Source: a virus
Direction: 5' to 3' (one strand)
Virus record (IMG/VR): IMGVR_UViG_3300037808_001901
Length of the DNA: 13,568 nucleotides
The translations under genes and the position numbers were made by a program. This document shows, one piece after another, positions 1,557 to 12,564 of this stretch. Each line of letters begins with the position of its first letter. Position 1 is the first letter of the stretch. The notes under the pieces are model-generated. The model was not told the origin of the DNA. It saw only the letters and a program-made list of their open reading frames with translations, and ran no database searches.

Positions 1557-1587
1557 AAAAAAACCCAAGGCCAACTTGACCTTGGGT
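1557..1587 (-). terminator. rho-independent terminator (minus strand)
   Basis: 7-bp GC-rich stem CCCAAGG (1564-1570) / CCTTGGG (1581-1587) with a 10-nt loop. On the minus strand it is followed by a T7 run (plus-strand A-run 1557-1563). It lies downstream of the vault-protein gene and the small Met-rich ORF. Confidence 0.6.
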
Positions 1588-1613
1588 TTCGGGACGTGGC
1601 GAGCCTTGTGAGG

Positions 1614-1793
1614 TCACTCGTCGTATTCGTCGTCGTCATCATCATCGTCATCATCCCCCATACCCATCATCATCATCATGGGCATCATGTTCATCATGGG
1701 GTTGGTGCCTTCGCCGCCGCCATTCTGATTCTGCATCATCATGGCCATCAGCATGCCTTTGTCCATACCATCGCCGCCACCTTTGCCCATCAT
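1614..1793 (-). CDS. small low-complexity ORF (59 aa): Met/Gly-rich body with a poly-Asp tail
   Basis: Own translation: MMGKGGGDGMDKGMLMAMMMQNQNGGGEGTNPMMNMMPMMMMMGMGDDDDDDDDDEYDE. The ATG at 1793 lies 6 nt past the MVP stop, in the -1 frame relative to MVP. There is no SD. The His-rich plus-strand ORF 1596-1805 is its mirror image. Confidence 0.3.
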   Translation of the reverse strand: MMGKGGGDGMDKGMLMAMMMQNQNGGGEGTNPMMNMMPMMMMMGMGDDDDDDDDDEYDE

Positions 1794-1798
1794 CGTCG

Positions 1799-4489
1799 TT
1801 ACTGAGGGGCTTGAGTACGTTCAGCACCTCTTGTCAAGGCACCCAAAAATGGTGCCAAGCGTTCCGATCCGCCCAAAATTTGGGTGATCACTTCAACGGC
1901 ACTCTTGCCGCCGATCATTGTCTGGACACTGGTAGCCTCAGCGATCTTGACCGCAACATCATCACGGCTGAGAGCGGTAAGAGCTTCGGTGAATCCACCT
2001 TCCAGAGCAGCGAACTGAGCAATCAAAGCTTCGGAGTCAACCTTCACGCCACCTTGTCGCAATTCTTCAATCGCCACACGACAAGCCTGAGTGTTTGCTT
2101 CCTTGTCTTTGGTTCGACGCATTTCAGCATCATGCGTAACTTGTTCATTGGCAGTTGCTGCCAAAGTAATGTCTTTTCGAGCAACTTCTTGCTCAAGGTC
2201 AGACTTAATCACAGCCAGAGAGTTGGTCAGATTAAGAGTGGTAGTTTCTTGCTGAATTTCAGCTTGGAAACGAACCGTCTCTTGTTTTGCGGTCAACTTC
2301 TCTTTGCTGATTCGCTCATTTTCCACAGTCAACTCAAGGTCACGTTTGGCGTTTTCCAGACTGATGTTCTGGACAACAACGTTCTTTCGAGCTTCGTCGA
2401 GAATCTGAGCAATTCGCTCATCATTCAGTTGAAGATCAAGGACTTCAACGTCAGTGACACGCATACCGTTTTCACTGAAGTACAGACCAGTGAGATCGGT
2501 TTCATCATCAGTGCCATCTTCGGCCTGTTTTGCCAATCGCTTCAACTTGGGGTCTTCTGGATTCTTCACCTTATGAAGAATCGTATCTCGGACAATCGCC
2601 ATACCATTCGTGTAGAACTCTTGAATGGTATTTTGTTTTGCCACACTCTTGAGAATCGACCGGGTGTGGTCGCACAACAGTTTGACGTAATTCTCAACAT
2701 CGAACCAATGTTCTTTGAGTTCTGAATCGAAGTTGACACGATAAGCCAACTTGATCTTAACCTCAATGTTGTCAGAGGTTTCGACGGTAAGCCAATCACT
2801 CACCTTGTTGTTGCTGACACGTAAGTAGACGGTCGGCATCAAGTTGTCAGTGTTTTTCGGCTTGCCCATTGACAATTCGAGAACTTCGAGATTTTCATCG
2901 TAGTCCAGCAAAATGGTCTTGGGGCCAAGTTCGACACGACGTTCGCCAGTCTTACTCACGACCTTGACAGCATAACCTGTCCATAGATCGATAGATGGGA
3001 CATTATCGAACTTACTGCCGACAACAACGGACTTCGGGCCTTTGCGAGCCTGACGACGACCAGCAGCACCACCACGACTTCCAGAAGCTTCGCCCTTTCG
3101 GGTTCGACGACCAGCGTTCTCAAGGTCATCGCTGATTGCTTCAAGACCTTGTGACGAAGTGTGGCCAGCGTAAGAATCGGCTTGACGTGCGAAGTCTTTT
3201 TCGGAGACCAAACCAGATCGACCTGAATTAGATGTTTCCATCATATCTTCAAGTTCGGCATTGTAGGCTGAGACTTCTGCGTTCTCAGGATACATAAGCC
3301 GACATTGACCTTGGCTCAACACACGACGAACAACAAGTTCTTCTCGTGGGTCAGGGAGCAACATCTTGGGGCCGACAATGGTTTCCACATTGCCAGATTC
3401 ACGGTTGAGAAGGTAACGACCTTCACCCTTGGGAATCTGCAAAGCGTAATGCTTGGCATCGGGGCCGAATTGGATGATGGAATGCTCTTTACGTGGGAAG
3501 TAAAGGGCGTTCATTCCGCCAGTGATGAAGATTTCTTCGCCTTCTTTGAAAGACTCGTCGCCATCTTCATAATCTTCGATGACCTTAACATGGATGCCTT
3601 GAGTTTTGTGCAACTCAACGGCTTTGGCCTTTCGGTTTTTGCCTTGTTCCACGAAGGTTTCAGTCGGTTCAGGGAAAACAACTGCTGGTCCACGACAGAA
3701 CCGCTTGTCGCCATTTTCATCGACAAGGATTGTGTGTTCCAGACGTTCAAGCGTAACCGCATCACGAACATAGTTGTTGCCTTCGGGGACAACTTCGACA
3801 CCAGTTGGTGGAATATAGAAACTGCTGTCAGTTCCCTTGATGACGAATAACTTGCCGATGGTCAAATTAAGTTCTTCGGCAGTTGTCGTTGCGTCAATGG
3901 TAGTAGCTTCAGTTTCGCCGTCATTGTTGTCGGCAAGACCACCAGTTTCACCAGCATTAGCTGGCTTGAAGACAGCTTGATCCCAATTTGCCCGTGCTTC
4001 TTCTTCATTGTAAATACGAATGAGAAGATATTGGTTGGACCGTAGGCGATGGCCGGGGATAACGGTCGAGATTTGGCCGGGCCACAAAGCGAAAGTCTTT
4101 GGACCGGGAATGTTAATCTTGCTTCCCATTACAAGAGTCGGGCTGTTTTGTCGATCACTCTCGTTGAATTTGGGGTGTGCTTCATTCTCATTGGACGAGG
4201 GATTTTTGAGAACAATATATTCTCCCTCAGCAGCAATGGGGCACATTCTGACCGAAGCATTCAGATCGCAAGTTCTGAATCGGCCTTCTTCTGCATCGAA
4301 GCCGACTGGACGATCTTGTCCTGTTTGGTTGATCGTACAAGGACCAACACCAACACCAACTCGACCGGACGTTTCGCCTTGCAAATAGGCGTATTCACCG
4401 GGAGCTAAAACTAAGTCACGATCAGCACTTCTGGGTCCACGTTCTCCACCGCCTTGCATGTTACTTCTCCGAAAGTTAGGGGTTTTCAT
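1799..4489 (-). CDS. mvp: major vault protein (MVP) homolog, 896 aa
   Basis: The 896-aa ATG ORF aligns by eye along its whole length with eukaryotic MVP. N-terminal vault repeats: PGEYAYL..VGVGPCT vs PPYHYIH..VEVGPKT; GEYIVLKNP vs HYCTVANP; SFYIPPTGVEVV vs GTYIPRKEVEVV. Shoulder: LAYRVNFD vs LAYNWHFEV; NYVKLLCDHTRSILKSVA vs DFVGDACKAIASRVRGAV. This is followed by a long Ala/Glu/Gln-rich coiled-coil cap-helix segment. An alternative start at Met11 (ATG 4459) has a better SD (GGAGAAG). Confidence 0.85.
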   Translation of the reverse strand: MKTPNFRRSNMQGGGERGPRSADRDLVLAPGEYAYLQGETSGRVGVGVGPCTINQTGQDRPVGFDAEEGRFRTCDLNASVRMCPIAAEGEYIVLKNPSSNENEAHPKFNESDRQNSPTLVMGSKINIPGPKTFALWPGQISTVIPGHRLRSNQYLLIRIYNEEEARANWDQAVFKPANAGETGGLADNNDGETEATTIDATTTAEELNLTIGKLFVIKGTDSSFYIPPTGVEVVPEGNNYVRDAVTLERLEHTILVDENGDKRFCRGPAVVFPEPTETFVEQGKNRKAKAVELHKTQGIHVKVIEDYEDGDESFKEGEEIFITGGMNALYFPRKEHSIIQFGPDAKHYALQIPKGEGRYLLNRESGNVETIVGPKMLLPDPREELVVRRVLSQGQCRLMYPENAEVSAYNAELEDMMETSNSGRSGLVSEKDFARQADSYAGHTSSQGLEAISDDLENAGRRTRKGEASGSRGGAAGRRQARKGPKSVVVGSKFDNVPSIDLWTGYAVKVVSKTGERRVELGPKTILLDYDENLEVLELSMGKPKNTDNLMPTVYLRVSNNKVSDWLTVETSDNIEVKIKLAYRVNFDSELKEHWFDVENYVKLLCDHTRSILKSVAKQNTIQEFYTNGMAIVRDTILHKVKNPEDPKLKRLAKQAEDGTDDETDLTGLYFSENGMRVTDVEVLDLQLNDERIAQILDEARKNVVVQNISLENAKRDLELTVENERISKEKLTAKQETVRFQAEIQQETTTLNLTNSLAVIKSDLEQEVARKDITLAATANEQVTHDAEMRRTKDKEANTQACRVAIEELRQGGVKVDSEALIAQFAALEGGFTEALTALSRDDVAVKIAEATSVQTMIGGKSAVEVITQILGGSERLAPFLGALTRGAERTQAPQ

Positions 4490-4511: not shown

Positions 4512-4541
4512 CCATTGTACGAAAATTTTCGGCAAAGTAAA
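4512..4541 (-). promoter_or_regulatory. conserved sigma70-like promoter motif, copy 1 (minus strand), upstream of the MVP gene
   Basis: Minus-strand reading: TTTACT(-35, 4541-4536)-16 nt-TACAAT(-10, 4519-4514). 25 of 30 positions are identical in all three copies (4512-4541, 8665-8695, 10251-10280), including the invariant CCATTGTACGAAAA block. It sits 23 nt upstream of the MVP ATG. Confidence 0.55.
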
Positions 4542-4550
4542 ATCAGGTTC

Positions 4551-5120
4551 TCAAAGTAATTCATCGATATTGAACAAAGAGCTAAATTTGATGTTGTGTT
4601 CCTCAAATAGCTCATTTGCCCCAGCGTTTCGATCCACAACAGAGATTACCTCTGAGATAGTACAACCAAATTCCTGAACGATTTCACACGCCCGCAAGAG
4701 ACTGCCACCGCTGGTTGTCACGTCTTCTACGATAACACAGTGGTCATCTTCCTTTACGCTTCCAATGACAAGATCGTTAATCCCATGACCTTTTTGTTCT
4801 TTTCGGACTAAAAAGCCTCGAAGGTAGTGATTTGGATGACTGGCTCTTATTTGAAGCATGCCGCCAACAATGGGATCGGCACCAACGCATGGTCCGCCAA
4901 TCGCATCTATATCGAATGGGTGTTGCTGCTTGTCAGAAAGCACATCGCACAAACAATGACTGATCAGCCGAAGACCTTCACTCTGTAGGGTCACCTGTCG
5001 TAGATCAATGTAGTAGGAAGATTTTGCACCACTTTTAAGGACAAAATCCCCATGCTTAATCGCTTGGGTCTGAATCAAGTTCTTCAATAATGTCTTCGAG
5101 GATTTGGAATCCGCCTTCAT
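4551..5120 (-). CDS. pyrE: orotate phosphoribosyltransferase
   Basis: 189 aa. FVLKSGAKSSYYIDLR matches the OPRTase N-terminal FxLxSGxxSPYYxD motif. VIVEDVTTSGGS is the type I PRTase PRPP-binding motif. GGAG lies 10 nt upstream of the ATG. Confidence 0.8.
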   Translation of the reverse strand: MKADSKSSKTLLKNLIQTQAIKHGDFVLKSGAKSSYYIDLRQVTLQSEGLRLISHCLCDVLSDKQQHPFDIDAIGGPCVGADPIVGGMLQIRASHPNHYLRGFLVRKEQKGHGINDLVIGSVKEDDHCVIVEDVTTSGGSLLRACEIVQEFGCTISEVISVVDRNAGANELFEEHNIKFSSLFNIDELL

Positions 5121-5499
5121 CTTGCACTATCTCCATTTTCTTTATCACGTTGCTTATTTCTTGGAATTGGATGGTCACATTGTGCCACACATCAGTTGCT
5201 TGCTTGGACGTTATCCAAGTCGCATAATTCTTCTCAGAAGGCTTTGAAGGTGCTTCTCTCTCAAACATCAGACCATGTTTGATCTGACTTTTTAAAACCT
5301 TTTCGTAAACATCATCTTCAATTTCACAAGAAAAATGGGTTTTGGTGTCAACAGCCCCATTTGCTTGCATTTTACGAAGGTTTTTATGAATGTATTGGAT
5401 ACGTGACTTTTCATTTAAATGAAGACTATATGTGCTCTTAACGAGACCATGTTCCTCATCCGTCAACGTTCTCCAAACTTGGCATATTAATTTCTTCAT
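5056..5499 (-). CDS. hypothetical protein (147 aa), acidic C-terminal tail
   Basis: ATG ORF. Its 3' end overlaps the pyrE start by 65 nt in another frame. No recognisable motif. Confidence 0.45.
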   Translation of the reverse strand: MKKLICQVWRTLTDEEHGLVKSTYSLHLNEKSRIQYIHKNLRKMQANGAVDTKTHFSCEIEDDVYEKVLKSQIKHGLMFEREAPSKPSEKNYATWITSKQATDVWHNVTIQFQEISNVIKKMEIVQDEGGFQILEDIIEELDSDPSD

Positions 5500-6034
5500 A
5501 TCTCAGTAGCTTTATAACCTGAAACGCATCTTCAAGGGCAGTGTGGGTTACTTCACCCTTAATGCCTGCTCTCTCCATGCATGTCTTTAAGTTAGGAATC
5601 TTTTCATCAACGCTAGGTTGCCAAAAACGCATAGCTGGGTCAATACATCTGTGGGCAAACTGACTTTTATCGAAGTTGGGTAATTTTTTCATGAAATTCA
5701 TATCGAAGCTCATGAAGTTTTTACCAGCTATTGTTGCTTTTTCATCTTCAAAGTGTTTTGCGATCCATAATTGGAAAGCACCAGCCACAGTAGTTATGGG
5801 TTCATATCGCCAACCTTCTGGGCGATGATGTAGTTTGCTGAAGATATCAGCGTGCATGTGAAGAGCATATGGCTCTCCAGAATAATATGGGTGAACCACA
5901 TAACAATGAAAAGTCGGGAGCTTATCGACAGGAGTTTCGTAACTCGTATCGTCAACTACAGCACCGATTTCAATAATTTGGCAATATTCTTCGTCTAAAC
6001 CTGTGGTCTCTAAATCAATTGATACATATTTCAT
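5456..6034 (-). CDS. DEDDh-family 3'-5' exonuclease (DnaQ/RNase T/oligoribonuclease-like)
   Basis: 192 aa. Exo I motif IDLETTGLD occurs within 10 residues of the N-terminus. Exo III motif HTALEDAFQVIKLL (H-x4-D) near the C-terminus. An FD-containing Exo II-like segment lies in between. Confidence 0.75.
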   Translation of the reverse strand: MKYVSIDLETTGLDEEYCQIIEIGAVVDDTSYETPVDKLPTFHCYVVHPYYSGEPYALHMHADIFSKLHHRPEGWRYEPITTVAGAFQLWIAKHFEDEKATIAGKNFMSFDMNFMKKLPNFDKSQFAHRCIDPAMRFWQPSVDEKIPNLKTCMERAGIKGEVTHTALEDAFQVIKLLRYEEINMPSLENVDG

Positions 6035-6300
6035 TATTTCTTCTTTTTATTTTTTCTTTTGGTAAGTTCTTTTTCGAACTTATCAATTATATCTTGATCT
6101 GCTATTTTTTTCAATACTGTTAAAAATAAGGTCAATTCACCGTCTAGCTCTTCTATTTGAAGACCACGTTTATGAATTGTCTTGGCTTGACGAGTTTGAC
6201 AAGCTAAAAGGTCTTTTATAACACCTTGAGGATCGCTTTTGCATCTGCTCTGAAACGGACTTGGATCACTCATCAGCGGTGTCTCCGGTATTACTGGCAT
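6034..6300 (-). CDS. hypothetical protein (88 aa), poly-Lys C-terminus
   Basis: ATG ORF. Its stop is adjacent to the exonuclease start. It overlaps the upstream lipoprotein gene by 35 nt. Confidence 0.4.
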   Translation of the reverse strand: MPVIPETPLMSDPSPFQSRCKSDPQGVIKDLLACQTRQAKTIHKRGLQIEELDGELTLFLTVLKKIADQDIIDKFEKELTKRKNKKKK

Positions 6301-6583
6301 TCATCTTTTCCTCAGCTTCTTTCAATTTAACAACAGCAAATTCAAGTTGTTCTCTATATGCTCCAACTTCTTCGGCTGATGAAAAAGAAACCTTAACGTG
6401 ATTACCACAATGGTTCTTGTAGTAAATCTCAATTGAAGATTCTTTGTTGGTCTCTTCAACTGTGACTGTAACTGAGGGTGCTGGTGGTGGAGGCGGAGTT
6501 TCTGGCCTTTCACACCCTGCTACAAGTAAAACAACAATTGCTGCCAAAGAAACAAGTTCGGCCCATAATGGCTTATTCATCAT
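6266..6583 (-). CDS. predicted lipoprotein with proline-rich linker (105 aa)
   Basis: N-terminus MMNKPLWAELVSLAAIVVLLVAGC has a hydrophobic h-region plus the lipobox L-V-A-G-C. The Cys is followed by ERPETPPPPPAPS and then a small C-terminal domain. ATGA overlap with the stop of the upstream gene (6580-6583). Confidence 0.6.
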   Translation of the reverse strand: MMNKPLWAELVSLAAIVVLLVAGCERPETPPPPPAPSVTVTVEETNKESSIEIYYKNHCGNHVKVSFSSAEEVGAYREQLEFAVVKLKEAEEKMNASNTGDTADE

Positions 6584-7167
6584 ATTGCCTCAAATCGGAA
6601 CATCATTTCGTGTACGATCTTTTGAGGATCGAACATTATGCCAGCGTCATCCATTGTGAATTGTTTGTCCCACTTGTCTGTCGCTTCCCAAGTTGGGTCA
6701 ATAAGCTCAGGCTTATTCTTCTTAACCCATGCCTCTAGGAATTCGCAGTCAGTGTCTTCATCATTGCCAATCGCAGCTTTATCCTTGTAATTCCAAACGT
6801 TGCCTTCTTTGGGAATATACGCTCGGAAAGTTTTACCATCTTGGTCAAGATAAACAATGAACTTAATGGGATATTCCCAATCGCCACCAGCAGACCAGCC
6901 AATGAGAGAGAATTGGGTTAAAGGAGATCGAGTCCAAAAAGTTCGTGGGCCTAAGATGCTACACTCAGCCCCGAATTCTTCGTGATCATAAGAGTAATTC
7001 TCAAAGTCAAATTGGACCTTATCAAGATCACTCTGGAATTTTGGACCTAAGCAGTCGAATTCGTAAGGACTAATCCCTTTGCCGCCAAATTTTTCATGGA
7101 ACATTTCCAAGAGTTGGCTGGGATTAACACGTTTAGTCGAACAGGCTTTACGTCTGGCTTTTGGCAT
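6580..7167 (-). CDS. hypothetical protein (195 aa)
   Basis: ATG ORF. It overlaps the upstream gene by 20 nt. No recognisable motif. Confidence 0.5.
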   Translation of the reverse strand: MPKARRKACSTKRVNPSQLLEMFHEKFGGKGISPYEFDCLGPKFQSDLDKVQFDFENYSYDHEEFGAECSILGPRTFWTRSPLTQFSLIGWSAGGDWEYPIKFIVYLDQDGKTFRAYIPKEGNVWNYKDKAAIGNDEDTDCEFLEAWVKKNKPELIDPTWEATDKWDKQFTMDDAGIMFDPQKIVHEMMFRFEAI

Positions 7168-7756
7168 GAACTTCTTCCCACATTAGGAATGCTTCTGATT
7201 CAAGTGCGTGAATCAAACCTTTTGATTCATCCGTTAACTCTTGTGTGTATTCTGGAAGCACAGATGCGGCTCTTACAAGAGAATGTGATTTTATAACTTC
7301 CTCATTAAAATCGTAGCCCGCTTCACTAAGGAAATGGGCCAAACAATCTCTCAAGTTTTCCGTGGTTCCAACAAGATCACAAACCTCTAACAGCCCTTTG
7401 TATCTGGATGTTAAAAATGGGTGATTCCCGTTGCATTCTCTTTGGGTGACGTTTTCAACAAATCGATTAAGATCGTCACTCCAAGCATCTTCTCCCCAAA
7501 GTCTTGTGCAGAACTTCCTACTTCCGTTCAGGAGATAGAAAGCGTGAAATGATTTGTACCATGCGTGTGGATGGCGAAAGACTGTAGCTGTTAAGAATGC
7601 AGGATCGTTGGTTATTTTCTCAACTGCATCTTCAACATTTTTTCTTTCGAAAAGTTTTCTGAGAACGTGATTAACAAAAGAGCCACCATGTTTTGAAACG
7701 TGGTAGAACTTGAGTCTCTTTCCTTCTTTGAGTGGAGAATAATATCTTACATTCAT
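7148..7756 (-). CDS. putative sulfotransferase-like protein (202 aa)
   Basis: KFYHVSKHGGSF resembles the 5'-phosphosulfate-binding F-x-H-[IV]-P-K-[TS]-G-G-[TS] loop of Sulfotransfer_2-type enzymes. The start is set at the internal ATG 7756 because the longer ORF (to 7798) would run into the tRNA at 7760-7863. The ATG lies 3 nt after the tRNA 3' end. Confidence 0.45.
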   Translation of the reverse strand: MNVRYYSPLKEGKRLKFYHVSKHGGSFVNHVLRKLFERKNVEDAVEKITNDPAFLTATVFRHPHAWYKSFHAFYLLNGSRKFCTRLWGEDAWSDDLNRFVENVTQRECNGNHPFLTSRYKGLLEVCDLVGTTENLRDCLAHFLSEAGYDFNEEVIKSHSLVRAASVLPEYTQELTDESKGLIHALESEAFLMWEEVHAKSQT

Positions 7757-7759
7757 GAG

Positions 7760-7863
7760 TGCCCCTAGCAGGACTCGAACCTGCACGCCTTTCGGCACTA
7801 GTTCCTATCGTAGGGTTGTTTAACCCTTAAAACTAGCGTGTCTGCCAATTCCACCATAGGGGC
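7760..7863 (-). tRNA. tRNA-Leu(TAA), type II, with a 22-nt insertion (intron-like) in the anticodon loop
   Basis: Minus strand: GCCCCTA-TG-GTG-GAATTGGCAGA-CAC-G-CTAGT-[TTTAAG|GGTTAAACAACCCTACGATAGG|A]-ACTAG-TGCCGAAAGGCGT-GCAGG-TTCGAGT-CCTGC-TAGGGGC-A. Perfect 7-bp acceptor, long variable arm, discriminator A, canonical D and T arms. 29 nt lie between the anticodon-stem halves, against the normal 7. Confidence 0.6.
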
Positions 7864-7986
7864 ATAATCTGCTTTATGCGTTGCTCCAACACGCCAATTT
7901 TAAATGAGTGGCCACCCAAATTAAATCGACTATAGTCCGAACATTCACATATCGCTGCTATTGTCCAAGGATGCAATGGATGTGAA

Positions 7987-7995
7987 ATTATACCA
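7987..7995 (-). promoter_or_regulatory. candidate extended -10 element (TGGTATAAT on minus strand) upstream of the solo tRNA-Leu
   Basis: Revcomp of 7987-7995 is TGGTATAAT. No good -35 hexamer was found. It lies about 120 nt upstream of the tRNA 5' end. Confidence 0.3.
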
Positions 7996-8030
7996 ATGTC
8001 CCTCGGTTTTAGAGCAACGCATGAAGCAGA

Positions 8031-8417
8031 TTATTCGTCTAAGGACTCTACTTCCGTGACAAAGTATGTAGTAGCCCCCTTCCAACTTTGAGAACTACGT
8101 TGTTCACGATAGTGTATCTTGACTCGTTTGCCAGAATCCATAGCATCTTCAACTTGCTCAACAACGCTTTCGCCATCTTCGGGCGGATAAACGCTGAACT
8201 CCCATTTTTCACGTTGGCCACCTTGATCGATGGCACCCATAGCAAGTTCGCCTTCCCATGTTTTTACCCAACTCCCTTTGTGAGAGAATTTGACAACAAC
8301 ACCGACTCGGCTACCTTCTGAGTAGGTCCAACCAGCAGACGAAAACCACAAATACACTCCGCCACCTAAGACCCCCACAACCGCAAGAATCATGGCAACT
8401 TTTTTGGCTTTATCCAT
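8031..8417 (-). CDS. membrane-anchored hypothetical protein (128 aa)
   Basis: N-terminal hydrophobic helix (VAMILAVVGVLGGGVYLWF). ATG start. Its ATG shares one nucleotide with the TGA stop of the upstream ORF (TGATG). Confidence 0.55.
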   Translation of the reverse strand: MDKAKKVAMILAVVGVLGGGVYLWFSSAGWTYSEGSRVGVVVKFSHKGSWVKTWEGELAMGAIDQGGQREKWEFSVYPPEDGESVVEQVEDAMDSGKRVKIHYREQRSSQSWKGATTYFVTEVESLDE

Positions 8418-8608
8418 CAGTCAGTCCTTCCATTTAATAAGCGTCCAAGAGACACTCGTTTCCCGGCTTGATTAGTGCTTTCGGGGTATTTTTCTTTTGC
8501 ACAGTCATTATCGCAAAAGAATTTATCCTCTAAAAAGCATCCTGTCCATTCCCAATTGAAGGTACGCCCACAATTGCAACACACCTTCTCAATTATATCC
8601 TCAGCCAT
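8417..8608 (-). CDS. small Cys-rich (zinc-ribbon-like) protein, 63 aa
   Basis: CCNCGRTF..C..C...C pattern. ATG start, about 55 nt downstream of conserved promoter copy 2. Confidence 0.5.
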   Translation of the reverse strand: MAEDIIEKVCCNCGRTFNWEWTGCFLEDKFFCDNDCAKEKYPESTNQAGKRVSLGRLLNGRTD

Positions 8609-8664
8609 TTCGCTTCACTCCATTTAGTGGAGCGAAAGCCCCGGAATCAAATTGTAGGTGCATT

Positions 8665-8695
8665 CCATTGTACGAAAATTTTGGGCAATGTAAAG
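8665..8695 (-). promoter_or_regulatory. conserved sigma70-like promoter motif, copy 2 (minus strand)
   Basis: Minus-strand TTTACA(8694-8689)-16 nt-TACAAT(8672-8667). It shares the CCATTGTACGAAAATTTT..GC.A.GTAAA core with copies 1 and 3. It lies immediately downstream of the terminator at 8697-8736. Confidence 0.55.
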
Positions 8696-8696
8696 C

Positions 8697-8736
8697 AAAA
8701 AAGGAGGGCGAAACAGGTCATTATCCCGTTTCGCCC
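8697..8736 (-). terminator. rho-independent terminator (minus strand)
   Basis: 9-bp stem GGGCGAAAC (8706-8714) / GTTTCGCCC (8728-8736) with a 13-nt loop. On the minus strand it is followed by CTCC and T6 (plus-strand A-run 8697-8702). Confidence 0.6.
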
Positions 8737-8860
8737 AAAAGCGGCAGTTTCTAATTATATTTCAGGACGGTGTATCAGGGGTTTAGCCTCCTGCCGCTTA
8801 CTCGTTACTCGACTTTTATACGAGTGAGTTTAATTTATCGGCCAAACTACCAATACGTGA

Positions 8861-8982
8861 CCCTAGCGATGTTTTTACGGAAAAGATATCGCCAAACCCG
8901 AAGGCATTATAAAATCCTTCATAGCGATGTTTATGTGGGAAATTTAATCGCCAATAAAACCGAAGGCATAACCTTCACTCTA
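8861..8982. repeat. two imperfect ~60-bp tandem units, each containing nested inverted repeats
   Basis: Unit 1 (8861-8920) and unit 2 (8921-8982) each contain tAGCGATGTTT..ATCGCCAA(A/T)..CCGAAGGCAT..CCTTCA. GCGAT/ATCGC and GAAGG/CCTTC inverted repeats give two hairpins per unit. The region is non-coding, in the 3' region of the amidase-like gene and before the 8697-8736 terminator. Confidence 0.5.
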
Positions 8983-8999
8983 TAGTAGTGTTGCTAGTG

Positions 9000-9653
9000 T
9001 CAATCTTCCCACCAAGGACAAAGAACTCTGCTTTTTTTACAAGCATATTGAGAAGTTCTTTGTACCCACACCCAACAAGTGTTGTCATCGCAGTCATTGG
9101 TTAACATCACAGTTTTTCCCTCACTTTTTACAAAGTGAGAAAGTCTTTCTTTGGGATGATAATGGCGATTTAACTTATACATGATGCCCGCAGGGAATTG
9201 TTTACAGGGGTTGCCTCTTAAAGCAATCCCTCCACGCAGCAATGTTCTTGTTGTAAGTTCTCCGCAATGGATTCCTTTGCCAATCTTTCCTCGAAGATAA
9301 CTCCAAATGCTATACTCTCTATCTACTTGGTTTTCCAAGTAAGTACGCATTTTAAGTGCTTCGGCTCTGTTGTACAGAATCTTTGGCTTCATCAGCCATA
9401 TCTTCATTTGACGATTATGTTTTCTGTTGTGATTCTCTATTTCTTTAACATAATCAGAAAGGAGCAGTTTCCTGACCCTTGGAGGCTCAGCCTCATATAC
9501 CCACAGTTCCTCTCCAATATTAAAAAGCATCGCAACATGGGTATAAGGACTATCGGTTTCGTTTTCGACTATCCTATTGCCACCCTCGATAAATAACATT
9601 GTACCATCGGGACAGCTTGCTAATAATGTTGTTGCTAATATAATTGAATACAT
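9000..9653 (-). CDS. predicted lipoprotein, permuted papain-fold amidase/peptidase (YaeF/YiiX-like, C92 family)
   Basis: N-terminus MYSIILATTLLASC carries the lipobox L-A-S-C. YTHVAMLFNIGEE resembles the conserved SHVAIFLGE His segment and IHCGELTTRTL the C[SG]E Cys segment. The His-before-Cys order is typical of permuted NlpC/P60-like YaeF/YiiX lipoproteins. Confidence 0.55.
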   Translation of the reverse strand: MYSIILATTLLASCPDGTMLFIEGGNRIVENETDSPYTHVAMLFNIGEELWVYEAEPPRVRKLLLSDYVKEIENHNRKHNRQMKIWLMKPKILYNRAEALKMRTYLENQVDREYSIWSYLRGKIGKGIHCGELTTRTLLRGGIALRGNPCKQFPAGIMYKLNRHYHPKERLSHFVKSEGKTVMLTNDCDDNTCWVWVQRTSQYACKKSRVLCPWWED

Positions 9654-9777
9654 ATGATAGTTATAACATAGGGATTAACTTTTATTTATCATTTCTGCTG
9701 CCACCATATTGGGAGGAGTAGTGATGGAATATGTCCGCTGGCTGATAAAGCGGGATGGATTGTTTCAGCATCTTCTT

Positions 9778-10095
9778 CTAGGTCTGCCCACCTCGATACT
9801 TCGTTTCAAGCTGTTCCCATTCAAGCTCCAAACCGACAACTGGAGAAAGAGAACGAGCTTGACCAGCATAATAGTGATCTCGGTCACGCTGTCTTTGTTC
9901 TGCTACAGCTTTGCCATTTCTATAAAGCTGATTAAGCCTGCCTGTGCTTTTTGTCAAAAATGTCCAACAGGGTTCACAAATCCAGCCATCATCATCTGGT
10001 TCGACGCAAATGATTCGGCCTTGATGTTCATCTGAACGGCATCCACAATTTGGGACAAGACACGTTTGAACTCGAACTCGGATTAGATCATCCAC
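9778..10095 (-). CDS. Cys-rich hypothetical protein (105 aa), GTG start
   Basis: C-x4-C-x-C..C-x9-C-x2-C pattern. The only available start is GTG at 10095, 18 nt after the tRNA-like gene at 10114-10219. A competing plus-strand ORF (ATG 9724, strong GGGAGGAG SD) overlaps it antisense. Confidence 0.4.
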   Translation of the reverse strand: MDDLIRVRVQTCLVPNCGCRSDEHQGRIICVEPDDDGWICEPCWTFLTKSTGRLNQLYRNGKAVAEQRQRDRDHYYAGQARSLSPVVGLELEWEQLETKYRGGQT

Positions 10096-10113
10096 ATGAG
10101 TAGCCTTTTAAGG

Positions 10114-10219
10114 TGTCCAAGGTGGGACTCGAACCCACAAGCCCATTACGGGCGGCAGATTTTAAACGGTGGGTTGACTAACCCATGTCTGCTGTGTTTG
10201 CCAATTTCACCACAAGGAC
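10114..10219 (-). tRNA. type II tRNA-Leu-like gene with a 21-nt anticodon-arm insertion and two T-T mismatches in the acceptor stem (possibly a pseudogene)
   Basis: Minus strand: GTCCTTG-TG-GTG-AAATTGGCAAA-CAC-A-GCAGA-[28 nt: CATGGGTTAGTCAACCCACCGTTTAAAA]-TCTGC-CGCCCGTAATGGGCTT-GTGGG-TTCGAGT-CCCAC-CTTGGAC-A. Removing ATGGGTTAGTCAACCCACCGT leaves the loop CTTAAAA (anticodon TAA). The D-arm is near-identical to the tRNA at 7760-7863. Conserved promoter copy 3 lies 30 nt upstream. Confidence 0.4.
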
Positions 10220-10250
10220 AAGATGTACCTTTCAATTTCGGTGTCCAGCA

Positions 10251-10280
10251 CCATTGTACGAAAAAAAATTGCGATGTAAA
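10251..10280 (-). promoter_or_regulatory. conserved sigma70-like promoter motif, copy 3 (minus strand), upstream of the tRNA-like gene
   Basis: Minus-strand TTTACA(10280-10275)-16 nt-TACAAT(10258-10253). It abuts the TAG stop of the XRE-like gene (10282-10284). Confidence 0.55.
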
Positions 10281-10281
10281 C

Positions 10282-10533
10282 CTAAGAGCAACCACGTTCT
10301 TCATCTTGGTGACAATCGTGACCAAAGATTACTTCTTGGGTTTTTCTCCCAAAAACTTTGGCGACACACTGCATTTGACCCTTTGTAGGACTCCATTGCC
10401 GACCAACAATTCTTGAGGTTATTCCTTTGGGAAGATTACATTGCTCACAAAGAGCATCGCAACTCATATCGTTTTCTTTTAAGAGTTCATCAACCCAAAG
10501 AGGTTTTCTGAGAGTGACGTTTATAACAGCCAT
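10282..10533 (-). CDS. XRE-family helix-turn-helix transcriptional regulator (83 aa)
   Basis: CDALCEQCNLPKGITSRIVGRQWSPTKGQMQCVAKVFGRKTQEVIF matches the HTH_3 pattern (..LA...G.S...ISRIE.G...P......K.A..FG....E.F). Confidence 0.55.
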   Translation of the reverse strand: MAVINVTLRKPLWVDELLKENDMSCDALCEQCNLPKGITSRIVGRQWSPTKGQMQCVAKVFGRKTQEVIFGHDCHQDEERGCS

Positions 10534-10549
10534 TGCCCATTTTCTCCAA

Positions 10550-10576
10550 TAAAAAAGTTACCATATCTAGGTAACC
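10550..10576 (-). terminator. possible terminator-like hairpin overlapping the S4 gene stop
   Basis: GTTACC (10557-10562) / GGTAAC (10571-10576), a 6-bp stem with a 7-nt loop. On the minus strand it is followed by T6 (plus-strand A-run 10550-10555). The stem is short and AT-rich, so this is weak. Confidence 0.3.
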
Positions 10577-10761
10577 GTGGCTGATTTTTTGGCTTTAATG
10601 CCCACTTCAATAAGGTCGCCTTTTCCGACCATTTTGTCAATATCAAGAATCTTTGTCCCATCAACTCGAACACCGCCCTGACAAATTAGACGACGAGCTT
10701 CAGAACAAGAGACAACAAGCTTTAAATTAGCCATTTCCCGCACTAGGTTTTTGTCTTCCAT
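10567..10761 (-). CDS. S4-domain RNA-binding protein (64 aa)
   Basis: SEARRLICQGGVRVDGTKILDIDKMVGKGDLIEV follows the S4 motif (ARRLI.QG.V.VNG......D..V..GD.I). SD AGGAG precedes the ATG. It overlaps the upstream gene by 19 nt. Confidence 0.6.
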   Translation of the reverse strand: MEDKNLVREMANLKLVVSCSEARRLICQGGVRVDGTKILDIDKMVGKGDLIEVGIKAKKSATVT

Positions 10762-11261
10762 ATCTTCTCCTCTACATCAAATGTTCTTGCCAATACAAAC
10801 AAGTAATCGCTTAAACGATTAAGATAAGGAACAACAAGAGCAAATCTTCTGATGGAATCCGGTGTTGAATCTTTTCTCTCTGCTTCCCAAGCAGAAACCA
10901 CTCTTTCTGCTCTTCGACAAACAGTTCTTGCCACATGAATCTCAGGAGTGGATTTTGGAATAATGAAATTCTTTAATTCTGGCAAATCACTTTCCATAAG
11001 ATCAATAAGCGATTCAAGCTGGGTAATATCGTCTTCTGTTATTCTTGTGTTCCCTATCGCAAGTTGTGCCCCTATTTCCATCAGGTCTCTTTGAATTTTC
11101 TCTAAGACAGGCACATCCATTATTTTATCTCGGATCATTCCAATCCAAGCATTAAGTTCATCAATTTCACCTTGTCCATCGACAGAACAATCATGTTTTG
11201 GAACACGCATCCCACTGCTTAATGTGGTCCCGTTATCGCCGGTTTTTGTGTAAATTTTCAT
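10743..11261 (-). CDS. ATP:cob(I)alamin adenosyltransferase, PduO/MMAB-type
   Basis: N-terminus MKIYTKTGDNGTT is the signature start of PduO-type corrinoid adenosyltransferases (MKIYTRTGDKGxT). GEIDELNAWIG matches the following conserved helix. 172 aa. ATGA overlap with the S24-like gene. Confidence 0.75.
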   Translation of the reverse strand: MKIYTKTGDNGTTLSSGMRVPKHDCSVDGQGEIDELNAWIGMIRDKIMDVPVLEKIQRDLMEIGAQLAIGNTRITEDDITQLESLIDLMESDLPELKNFIIPKSTPEIHVARTVCRRAERVVSAWEAERKDSTPDSIRRFALVVPYLNRLSDYLFVLARTFDVEEKIWKTKT

Positions 11262-11575
11262 TTTGATGTTATCTTTTTGACTACGCCAAATACTTGGTTT
11301 TGGCTAATTGTACCATTGGTGTGATTTTTGTTGTTGCCGATTTGAAAGCGGTAACCACCCATTTTCTGGGTCACAGCTTGGACAAGGTGAACATAGTGAT
11401 TACCATTCACCTTACAAAAAACAACAGAACCTTTTTTGATCTTAGAATAGTCCTTGATGGGAACTACTTTTATTTCATCGCCAGAACAAATCAGTGGCTG
11501 CATTGAGTTGCCTTTCGGCCTAAAACTCACTGAGTTGCCTTTCTTCAATTCTTCTTTATGCCCATCCCAATTCAT
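11258..11575 (-). CDS. S24/S26-like serine peptidase domain protein (LexA/UmuD C-terminal-domain-like), 105 aa
   Basis: PKGNSMQPLICSGDEIKVV matches G-[DN]-S-M-x-P-x(4)-GD-x-[ILV]-x-V around the nucleophile Ser. A later KIKKGSVVFCKV supplies a candidate general-base Lys. SD GGAG lies 7 nt upstream. Confidence 0.55.
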   Translation of the reverse strand: MNWDGHKEELKKGNSVSFRPKGNSMQPLICSGDEIKVVPIKDYSKIKKGSVVFCKVNGNHYVHLVQAVTQKMGGYRFQIGNNKNHTNGTISQNQVFGVVKKITSK

Positions 11576-11604
11576 TTGATTCTCCTATTAAGGATAAGTA
11601 TTGT

Positions 11605-11754
11605 ATGACATTTAAAGAAAAAGTAGTAGATTGGATGGTTCGATCAAAGAAATACTTCGTCAGCCTTGGCTGGTGGGGATCAATTTTTCTAGTCCTTTGG
11701 TGGATCATCAAAATTATTCTCTGTATCTTCTTTGGAGTATGCATTATCGTTTAG
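11605..11754 (+). CDS. possible small single-TM protein (49 aa), plus strand
   Basis: AAGGA lies 10 nt upstream of the ATG. MTFKEKVVDWMVRSKKYFVSLGWWGSIFLVLWWIIKIILCIFFGVCIIV has basic residues followed by one hydrophobic helix. It overlaps the 3' end of the minus-strand ORF 11689-11934 by 66 nt, so only one of the two may be real. Confidence 0.3.
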   Translation: MTFKEKVVDWMVRSKKYFVSLGWWGSIFLVLWWIIKIILCIFFGVCIIV

Positions 11755-11934
11755 CTTGGCGTATGTCTCCGTAATAGGATCGTAAACAAATGGTGGCGGA
11801 TTAACGCTCTTCCATTTCACTCCATCCCAAACGATCCAGCCAGTTCCAGCAAAAAATGGCCATTGTGAATACTTTTTGTTGTGAGCATTCGAGTACCACA
11901 ACCACTGCATCATTCTGTAAATGTAATTCTTCAT
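11689..11934 (-). CDS. hypothetical Trp-rich protein (81 aa)
   Basis: ATG ORF beginning 36 nt after the last tRNA of the array. No SD and no recognisable motif. Confidence 0.4.
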   Translation of the reverse strand: MKNYIYRMMQWLWYSNAHNKKYSQWPFFAGTGWIVWDGVKWKSVNPPPFVYDPITETYAKLNDNAYSKEDTENNFDDPPKD

Positions 11935-12478: not shown

Positions 12479-12484
12479 AAAAAG

Positions 12485-12564
12485 TAGCCTTGGTGGGAGT
12501 CGAACCCACAAAATCACCAGATTCTAAATCTAGCCGCTTTGCCATTAGGTTTGCGTACAAGGCC
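12485..12564 (-). tRNA. type I tRNA with anticodon TAG (Leu by anticodon), long D-loop
   Basis: GGCCTTG-TA-CGC-AAACCTAATGGCAAA-GCG-G-CTAGA-TTTAGAA-TCTGG-TGATTTT-GTGGG-TTCGACT-CCCAC-CAAGGCT-A. 15-nt D-loop and 7-nt variable loop. Discriminator A. Confidence 0.5.

Follow-up and report, generated by a model that had tools for sequence, protein, structure and literature searches.

A family of probable sigma70-type promoters ahead of non-structural genes, including a vault-protein gene, in an uncultured marine phage lineage

The 13,568 nucleotides (nt) of viral DNA analyzed here (IMG/VR record IMGVR_UViG_3300037808_001901; hereafter the window) carry a 30-nt motif three times. Each copy is read on the minus strand and lies directly 5′ of a gene: a homologue of the major vault protein (MVP), a small Cys-rich open reading frame (ORF), and a tRNA-Leu gene. 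The three motifs are very probably real promoters of one family, as judged from their sequences. It is likely that they function as sigma70-type promoters, which would most probably be read by the host holoenzyme with its primary sigma factor, and that they mark non-structural, probably pre-replicative genes. The copies belong to a larger sequence family whose placement, orientation, conservation pattern, and start-site-like features are consistent from site to site.

It was found that the 14-mer CCATTGTACGAAAA has exactly three plus-strand matches in the window, at 4512, 8665, and 10251. A bipartite pattern, TTTAC-N11-TTTTCGTACAATGG, has only three matches in the window as well, all on the minus strand (4541-4512, 8694-8665, and 10280-10251). 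The same three sites and no others were obtained when up to two mismatches were allowed, and 200 dinucleotide-preserving shuffles of the window gave no match, even at two mismatches. A repeat search returned one family of three 30-nt copies, with copy 1 matched at 93% and 73% identity by the other two. The likeness ends at 30 nt, and the flanking sequences are mutually unrelated. Every copy reads TTTAC(T/A), 16 nt, and TACAAT on the minus strand, and a simple promoter scan of the window lists all three, with 9-10 of 12 hexamer positions matching the sigma70 consensus. An earlier note on this DNA had pointed out the threefold repeat and its minus-strand reading as TTTAC(A/T)-16 nt-TACAAT, and both observations are borne out. 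The coordinates that it gave for copies 1 and 3 hold, while copy 2 had to be shortened by one position (8665-8694, 30 nt, instead of 8665-8695).

Copy 1 (4512-4541, minus strand; TTTACTTTGCCGAAAATTTTCGTACAATGG) has a predicted −35 hexamer TTTACT at 4541-4536, a 16-nt spacer, a predicted −10 hexamer TACAAT at 4519-4514, and GG at 4513-4512. The predicted transcription start is A 4507. This copy lies 9 nt past the stop codon of a PRTase-like ORF and 52 nt ahead of the MVP start at 4459. Copy 2 (8665-8694, minus strand; TTTACATTGCCCAAAATTTTCGTACAATGG), with TTTACA at 8694-8689 and TACAAT at 8672-8667, is a perfect fit to the family consensus. It directly follows a predicted terminator (8736-8706) and lies 56 nt ahead of the Cys-rich ORF of 63 amino acids (aa), which begins at 8608, and its predicted start is at about 8661-8659. 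Copy 3 (10251-10280, minus strand; TTTACATCGCAATTTTTTTTCGTACAATGG), with TTTACA at 10280-10275 and TACAAT at 10258-10253, is located 1 nt past the stop codon of the ORF at 10282-10533 and 31 nt ahead of the tRNA-Leu(UAA) gene. Its predicted start is G 10246, which would leave a leader of about 26 nt before the tRNA. These coordinates agree with the earlier statement that each copy sits immediately 5′ of a minus-strand unit, namely the MVP gene, the Cys-rich gene after a terminator, and the tRNA-Leu-like gene.

Is the motif found outside the window? Metagenome contigs of JGI and ENA were scanned with a pattern in which 19 positions were specified, which gave 22 loci, and 20 of them, all from marine samples, are evident relatives. 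The other two (L135 and L139), from another sample type, deviate from the consensus outside the forced positions and were discarded as chance matches. Further members were collected by relaxed scans of the loci and of the window flanks, either with at most 4-5 mismatches or with the −10 half TCGTANAAT alone. In total, 29 distinct sites were obtained, six in the source genome and 23 in its relatives. The three source-genome sites outside the window (L153 15520, L153 19115, and L159 6247) lie within about 8 kb on either side of it, so the motif does recur elsewhere in the genome.

The consensus of the family is r-t-TTTACATT-(s s s n n w w w)-TTTTCG-TA(C/T/A/G)AAT-GG-g, or rtTTTACATT-N8-TTTTCGTA(C/T/A/G)AATGGg in a short form. 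It was already noticed in the window that conservation extends past the −35 and −10 hexamers, and this is seen throughout the family, in which TTTACATT and TTTTCG-TAnAAT-GG are kept. The −10 half TCGTANAAT occurs 29 times in about 160 kb of related sequence, and 26 of these occurrences have TTTAC at the proper distance. The hexamer spacer is 16 nt in 27 of the 29 sites, 15 nt in one, and 17 nt in one; no matches were found with a spacer of 18 nt or, in a wider scan, of 14 or 19 nt.

The family seems to have a narrow distribution. A scan of IMG/VR with the 19-position pattern gave zero matches, indicating that the relatives are not in that collection. In IMG/VR, the bare 14-mer gave nothing but single matches that are evidently due to chance, and none of these loci (L001-L120) has the bipartite motif. 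A scan of GTDB genomes gave nine single matches in unrelated bacteria (Leptolinea, Ferruginibacter, and others), which is about the chance level and offers no clue to the host. A megablast search of the window against INPHARED gave no match. At the protein level, the nearest records, as far as the few genes compared can tell, are the uncultured huge phages of Al-Shayeb et al. 2020: MVP is 39% identical to its homologues in LR756500, LR756501, and LR756503, while SbcD and rIIA are 46% and 26% identical, respectively, to those of LR756511. The motif is absent from LR756501 (39.6 kb around the MVP gene) and from LR756511 (83 kb around the SbcD and rIIA genes). Thus, the family is specific to this marine clade.

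Several features of the 29 sites point to promoter function. The −10 hexamer is TA(C/T/A/G)AAT in all 29 sites, with T-12, A-11, and the final AAT (ending in T-7) invariant. The third base varies (C in 18, T in six, and A in one of 25 sites, and G at L153 15520), and this position is the least constrained one in sigma70 −10 elements. The −35 block TTTAC(A) matches TTGACA at five of six positions. All of the sites are intergenic and co-oriented with the next ORF or tRNA gene, and they begin 0-63 nt (often 0-20 nt) past the upstream stop codon or follow a terminator. Some intergenic gaps are as short as 35 nt and consist of the stop codon, 1-3 nt, the 30-nt motif, 4 nt, and ATG.

The position of the putative start site is also marked. 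Among 25 sites, 23 have a purine as the seventh base past the −10 hexamer, and 18 have a pyrimidine as the sixth. In six independent sites, the ATG of a long ORF begins at exactly this seventh base (L124 8317-8353, L124 11783-11819, L136 5384-5420, L140 5279-5315, L140 7700-7736, and L153 15520-15556), and the whole intergenic region is made up of the stop codon, 1-20 nt, the 30-nt motif, 4 nt, and ATG. By my own calculation, about 0.45 such sites would be expected by chance (29 × 1/64), and the observation of six has a binomial P of about 1e-4. The six sites imply leaderless mRNAs, and they independently point to a start where a sigma70 promoter would place it. In its sequence features, base 7 past TACAAT behaves like a transcription start. 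The other sites have predicted leaders of 16-76 nt, mostly with a GGAG-type Shine-Dalgarno sequence. One orthologue of a leaderless-type site (L123 949) has a 16-nt leader with a Shine-Dalgarno sequence instead.

The pattern of divergence among orthologous sites is consistent with this picture. In five orthologous site sets from diverged genomes, the two blocks are 98% identical, while the 8-nt core of the spacer is 59% identical and the 40-nt flanks are 39-45% identical. Orthologues exchange TAGAAT for TAAAAT, or a leaderless layout for a Shine-Dalgarno-led one, and retain the blocks. Two of the loci, L140 and L134, share synteny with the window, and their nucleotide identity to it is 74-77%. 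The orthologue of copy 2 (L134 7919-7948) follows the same upstream gene and terminator and precedes a different downstream gene. Such terminator-promoter modules are found at copy 2 of the window, in L134, and before L124 11783.

According to established knowledge of the sigma70 holoenzyme, region 4 of sigma would contact TTTACA(TT) at −35, and region 2 would contact TA(C/T)AAT at −10, with the 16-bp spacer between them. The T-tract and CG upstream of the −10 hexamer and the GG(g) downstream of it, at the discriminator position, may provide added contacts that would make these sites strong competitors for polymerase. Transcription would begin at the purine 7 nt past the hexamer. I infer the identity of the polymerase and sigma factor, the strength of the promoters, and their timing from these features.

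The genes behind the sites are all non-structural. They include MVP, tRNA-Leu, a ClpX-like ATPase, NAD-dependent DNA ligase, GcvH, ADP-ribosylglycohydrolase, two cytidylyltransferase-like proteins, a gamma-glutamyl cyclotransferase of the GGACT family, an HD-domain protein, a metallophosphatase, a LAGLIDADG endonuclease, an rIIB-like protein, and several small ORFs. Judging from these loci, the family probably marks a non-structural, pre-replicative (early or middle) class. The suggestion of the earlier note that the copies define one co-regulated class including the vault gene fits the uniformly non-structural nature of these genes. The T4 late promoter TATAAATA is essentially absent from the loci, with one copy.

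A second motif, TAATyTGTyscccysGyACCTTATArg, was found in at least 17 copies in the lineage (L132 2860-11980 on the plus strand, L138 1860-3990 on the plus strand, and L121 around 1030-1065 on the minus strand). It is located 25-45 nt upstream of start codons on the coding strand, including that of an rIIA-like gene, and stands in tandem just downstream of a site of the first family ahead of the rIIB-like gene. No copy exists in the window or its flanks. The second motif is short and contiguous, and its shape is unlike that of a −35/−10 promoter. Its presence suggests that the lineage has more than one promoter-like code, which fits the idea that the first family represents one regulatory class. 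As a separate observation, the sequence CTATATA(A/G) occurs 20-45 nt upstream of several genes that have no family motif, often in divergent intergenic regions (five cases, too few for a conclusion; for example, L159 4385-4400, L124 around 1715 on the minus strand, L136 around 7100 on the minus strand, and L125 around 3230).

Some points weigh against the reading of these sites as host-read sigma70-type promoters of a pre-replicative class. The whole promoter case is built by inference from sequence. The loci compared include no structural-gene region, so an absence of the motif ahead of late genes, and with it a temporal class, is a presumption. In the retrieval pattern, 19 of the 30 positions were fixed, and the invariance is inflated in the roughly 14 sites that were retrieved with it; in the dozen or so unbiased sites from the relaxed scans, variation is seen at the third base of the −10 hexamer, at GG, and at bases 6-8 of the upstream block, with TTTAC and TTTTCG essentially invariant. 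The −35 hexamer is never TTGACA, and the TGn of an extended −10 element is absent, with TCG in its place. TTTTCG and GG are non-standard elements for sigma70 and are compatible with a phage sigma factor or co-factor. Lastly, there are other promoter-like motifs in the lineage, and the family is not its sole signal.

Some of these points lead to the alternative that the specificity of the promoters is set by the phage. A phage-encoded factor of the sigma70 family, or a co-factor that remodels the host sigma, would read TTTACATT, TTTTCG, and GG, and the class would be middle rather than immediate-early. The appropriation of sigma by T4 and gp28 of SPO1 are precedents for such phage-set specificity. 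TTTAC is found in 29 of 29 sites and TTGAC in none, even among the sites found without any constraint on the −35 region, and TTTTCG is conserved more strongly than the third base of the −10 hexamer. The second motif family suggests that several specificities are at work in the lineage. Moreover, some huge phages carry their own sigma70 or AsiA-like proteins (PMC7162821). However, the geometry and hexamers already match the sigma70 consensus at 9-10 of 12 positions, and no element resembling the MotA box (TGCTT at −30) was found. The early promoters of T4, which are read by unmodified host sigma70, likewise have TTTAC at −35, along with conserved positions outside it. A tblastn search of about 160 kb with the C-terminal half of Escherichia coli RpoD gave no sigma70 homologue, which is a weak test given that a small part of the genome is covered. 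On balance, a phage-set specificity is unlikely. A bolder version holds that TTTAC, TTTTCG, and GG form a phage-specific promoter code that is read by a phage sigma or remodelling factor and is combined with a compact leaderless design of stop codon, promoter, and AUG, with at least two such private codes in the lineage, the present family and the second motif family of the relatives. I offer this version as a tentative idea with a modest chance of being correct.

As for the host-read sigma70-type promoters favored here, their closest analogue would be the early-promoter class of T4-related phages. Early promoters of the T4 type have GTTTAC at −35 and extra conserved positions, and they stand ahead of early genes, novel ORFs, and tRNA genes (PMC1524935). 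In a review by Hinton, T4 early promoters are described as ‘uber’ promoters that out-compete host promoters for the sigma70 holoenzyme (PMC2988021). The resemblances are many. Both families have many near-identical copies per genome (PMC1524935, PMC2988021). The GTTTAC-type −35 element of T4, at −36 to −31 (PMC1524935), has a counterpart here in R(-36) T TTTAC A T T, that is, rTTTTAC. A TATAAT-like −10 element with invariant A-11 and T-7 and conserved positions outside the hexamers are common to both, and both kinds of site stand ahead of genes of the early type, of novel ORFs, and of tRNA genes, with terminators nearby that would define short operons. The rIIB-like gene has a site of this family, just as rIIB has an early promoter in T4.

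The differences from T4 early promoters are also clear. The present sites lack TGn or a GT-rich stretch 5′ of −12 and have TTTTCG there, with C instead of G at −14. Their spacer is 16 nt, compared with 17 nt in T4, and their invariant TTTTCG and GG blocks have no T4 counterpart. Enrichment of A/T at the UP positions is weak (A or T in 26 of 29 sites at −41 and in 24 of 29 at −50; the UP positions of T4 are at about −40 to −44 and about −52). Six of the 29 sites, about a fifth, are predicted to give leaderless mRNAs. The nearest relatives are, from the few genes compared, the uncultured huge phages LR756511 and LR756500/1/3, and the motif is absent from the scanned parts of LR756511 and LR756501. 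The lineage does have rIIA-, rIIB-, and SbcCD-like genes; the best database relatives are the uncultured huge phages, and the genes compared include no T4 core structural gene.

Canonical sigma70 promoters (TTGACA-17-TATAAT) share with the family the bipartite form, 9-10 of 12 hexamer matches, a spacer of 16±1 nt, a purine 7 nt downstream of the −10 hexamer, and a G-rich discriminator. In contrast, the sites here are far more uniform than a host promoter set, the third −35 base is always T, and there are extra invariant positions. T4 middle promoters, which depend on MotA and AsiA, also combine a phage-specific upstream element with a sigma70 −10 element, and they drive replication, nucleotide-metabolism, and tRNA genes (PMC2988021). 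However, the MotA box, (a/t)(a/t)(a/t)TGCTTtA, centered at −30 and 11-13 bp from the −10 element, is absent here; there is no GCTT, and the upstream block TTTACATT lies at −34 to −27, a true −35 distance. Promoters of single-subunit T7-like polymerases or of the phiKZ/AR9 type are similarly highly conserved, phage-specific, and repeated across the genome. They are, however, single contiguous blocks, whereas the present motif has two blocks with eight variable bases between them and a hexamer spacing of 15-17 nt.

The Bacteroidota sigmaA consensus has TTTG at −33 and a −7 element TAnnTTTG. The TACAATGG of the present sites is off at two conserved T positions of that element, and the −35 block is TTTAC, not TTTG. 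A GGAG-type Shine-Dalgarno sequence precedes 19 of 31 genes (about 60%). This degree of Shine-Dalgarno use, which is unlike that of Bacteroidota, together with the −35/−10 architecture, would argue against a Bacteroidota host. In summary of these comparisons, the T4 middle, T7-like, and Bacteroidota-type promoters, as well as mobile repeats, were rejected as models of the family, each failing a defining feature.

Another alternative is that the blocks serve mainly as the operator of a DNA-binding regulator made by the phage, such as a shut-off repressor that overlaps weak promoters. The reach of conservation past the hexamers could be explained in this way, and 15 nt downstream of copy 1 there is an inverted copy of the −10 half, CCATTGAATGAAAA (4496-4483, two mismatches), which could form a dimer-type site with it. 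However, this inverted partner exists at copy 1 only, and the motif is asymmetric. The coincidence of the blocks with −35 and −10 elements at a 16-bp spacing argues for a promoter, and the operator idea leaves the start-site features and the ATG at +1 unexplained. I consider it very improbable.

Even less credible is a function of the motif in RNA, as a processing site or a translational signal of polycistronic transcripts. The motif does lie between genes of co-directional operons, and a read-through RNA across copy 1 can fold a 13-bp imperfect hairpin with the inverted half-copy in the MVP leader. However, this hairpin is no better than those of shuffled sequences (z = -1.6), and copies 2 and 3 lack it. 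Two blocks around a spacer that varies in sequence and is fixed in length are typical of DNA recognition, the distance to the start codon ranges from 4 to 76 nt, and the leaderless cases have no room for a ribosome-binding site. Just as hard to credit, and largely refuted, is the possibility raised in the earlier note that the copies were left behind by a short repeat of mobile or recombinogenic nature (a miniature inverted-repeat transposable element, a target of a homing endonuclease or recombinase, or a module-shuffling junction). It is seemingly favored by the terminator-promoter module of copy 2, which precedes different genes in the window and in L134 as at a mosaic junction. However, the likeness stops at 30 bp with unrelated flanks, the internal 8-nt spacer is variable, terminal inverted repeats and target duplications are absent, and the strand and the distance to the start codon are strictly constrained.

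If the sites are promoters, they provide a 29-site, high-information promoter model for an uncultured marine phage lineage, with which transcription units and regulatory classes can be delimited in the genome without culturing the phage. The model would assign the vault-protein homologue and the tRNA-Leu gene to a non-structural, probably pre-replicative program, and this would constrain ideas on the role of a phage vault protein. The leaderless-type sites and the Shine-Dalgarno usage may serve as clues to the host, and the 30-45-bp elements are compact candidate parts for studies of expression. Conserved early-promoter families are textbook phage biology. The concepts are therefore unchanged by this sigma70-type family, which is a new example of an already well-known kind; what makes it most interesting in detail is its compact leaderless layout and the fact that the class takes in the gene for a phage vault protein.

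The window is 100% identical to part of a 60-kb marine metagenome contig in ENA (ERZ25071281 ctg48568), where L153 892-14459 is its reverse complement, and more than a dozen further contigs match it with the same full identity over part of their length. A JGI contig of 196,162 bp (sample 3300072015) has the same genes; hence, the phage genome is at least 196 kb. Identity among the strain variants (L153-L167) of the source genome is 99.98-100%, and they thus provide no within-population footprint. Every real gene of the window is encoded on the minus strand. Phage-like genes include the MVP homologue, the PRTase, an RNase T-like exonuclease, a PduO-type adenosyltransferase, and an S24 peptidase, and at least 13 tRNA genes form an array. 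The sequence that adjoins the window has genes for SbcCD-like nuclease subunits, ribonucleotide reductase, ADP-ribosylglycohydrolase, and a UvrD-like helicase.

Directly behind copy 1 comes the gene for the MVP homologue (1799-4459, minus strand; 886 aa when read from ATG 4459; Pfam MVP_shoulder 1.8e-22 and Vault_3 3.2e-12). Its start is preceded by a GGAG Shine-Dalgarno sequence at 4470-4467, and the 886-aa product is called in eight public contigs. An 896-aa form of the ORF was rejected as the gene product, as it has no exact database record and the 886-aa form from ATG 4459 is on record. The INPHARED matches of MVP are confined to three huge phages, LR756500, LR756501, and LR756503. Relatives of the MVP locus were sought in IMG/VR, and none were found. 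Viral MVPs in gut phages were reported in a 2023 preprint (10.1101/2023.11.10.566534); the MVP of this marine phage appears to be a separate occurrence. Right after the MVP gene, there is a 59-aa ORF (1614-1793, minus strand; 50 aa in some strains) that is made up nearly throughout of repeats of Asp, His, Met, Gly, and Pro and is predicted to be on the same transcript. A predicted intrinsic terminator follows (1560-1590, minus strand), an inverted repeat with a 14-bp stem and a T-run.

The other predicted intrinsic terminator (8706-8736, minus strand), immediately upstream of copy 2, has a 12-bp stem with eight G-C pairs and a T-run. The first gene behind copy 2 is the 63-aa Cys-rich ORF (8417-8608, minus strand), which has GGAG 9 nt before its ATG and no Pfam match. 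The first gene behind copy 3 is tRNA-Leu(UAA) (10112-10219, minus strand), which was detected by ARAGORN with introns allowed and has a 21-nt insertion in the anticodon loop. Its orthologue at L134 5135-5241 is 89.7% identical.

From these features, three transcription units can be predicted. Transcription from copy 3 would start at about G 10246, pass through tRNA-Leu(UAA), a 105-aa ORF, and a 217-aa ORF, and stop at the terminator at 8736-8706. Transcription from copy 2 would start at about 8661-8659 and cover the 63-aa Cys-rich ORF, a 128-aa ORF, tRNA-Leu(UAG), and seven ORFs up to the PRTase-like gene. Re-initiation at A 4507 from copy 1 would give a transcript of the MVP gene and the 59-aa ORF that stops at the terminator at 1590-1560. 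Promoters to the right of the window must be responsible for the tRNA array and for the genes at 10282-11934. On that side, there are the family member L159 6247 and a canonical-looking candidate, TTGCAT-17-TACTAT (L159 7527-7555, plus strand), which is unlike the family motif and lies upstream of the tRNA array, about 140 nt past the window's right end.

A second interrupted tRNA-Leu gene, with the anticodon UAG (7759-7863, minus strand), has a 22-nt insertion in the anticodon loop. The 22-nt and 21-nt insertions of the two tRNA-Leu genes share a small hairpin, GGGTTA-nn-CAACCC, and could be mini-introns or mobile mini-inserts in phage tRNA genes. Both genes are missed by ARAGORN with default settings, and Rfam finds only the UAG gene, so that ARAGORN with introns allowed is needed. 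Three tRNA-like sequences in gaps of the array (12484-12563, 13117-13198, and 13299-13379, minus strand) are not called by default tools or have sub-threshold scores of the tRNA-Sec type only.

A 39-nt inverted repeat (arms 7854-7892 and 8006-8044, 82% complementary and 113 nt apart) lies between the 128-aa ORF and tRNA-Leu(UAG) and overlaps the 5′ end of the tRNA. In the related contigs, a PhoH-like ATPase (L133 12258-14006, minus strand) and a DEAD/ResIII helicase (L131 5001-7475, minus strand) have intein-like LAGLIDADG/Hint insertions. Between the 217-aa ORF and the terminator upstream of copy 2, there is a non-coding stretch of about 260 nt (8740-9000). It contains direct repeats beginning with TAGCGATGTTT at 8864 and 8922, and the combination of ATCGCCAA and CCGAAGGCAT also appears twice; this stretch could be a small RNA.

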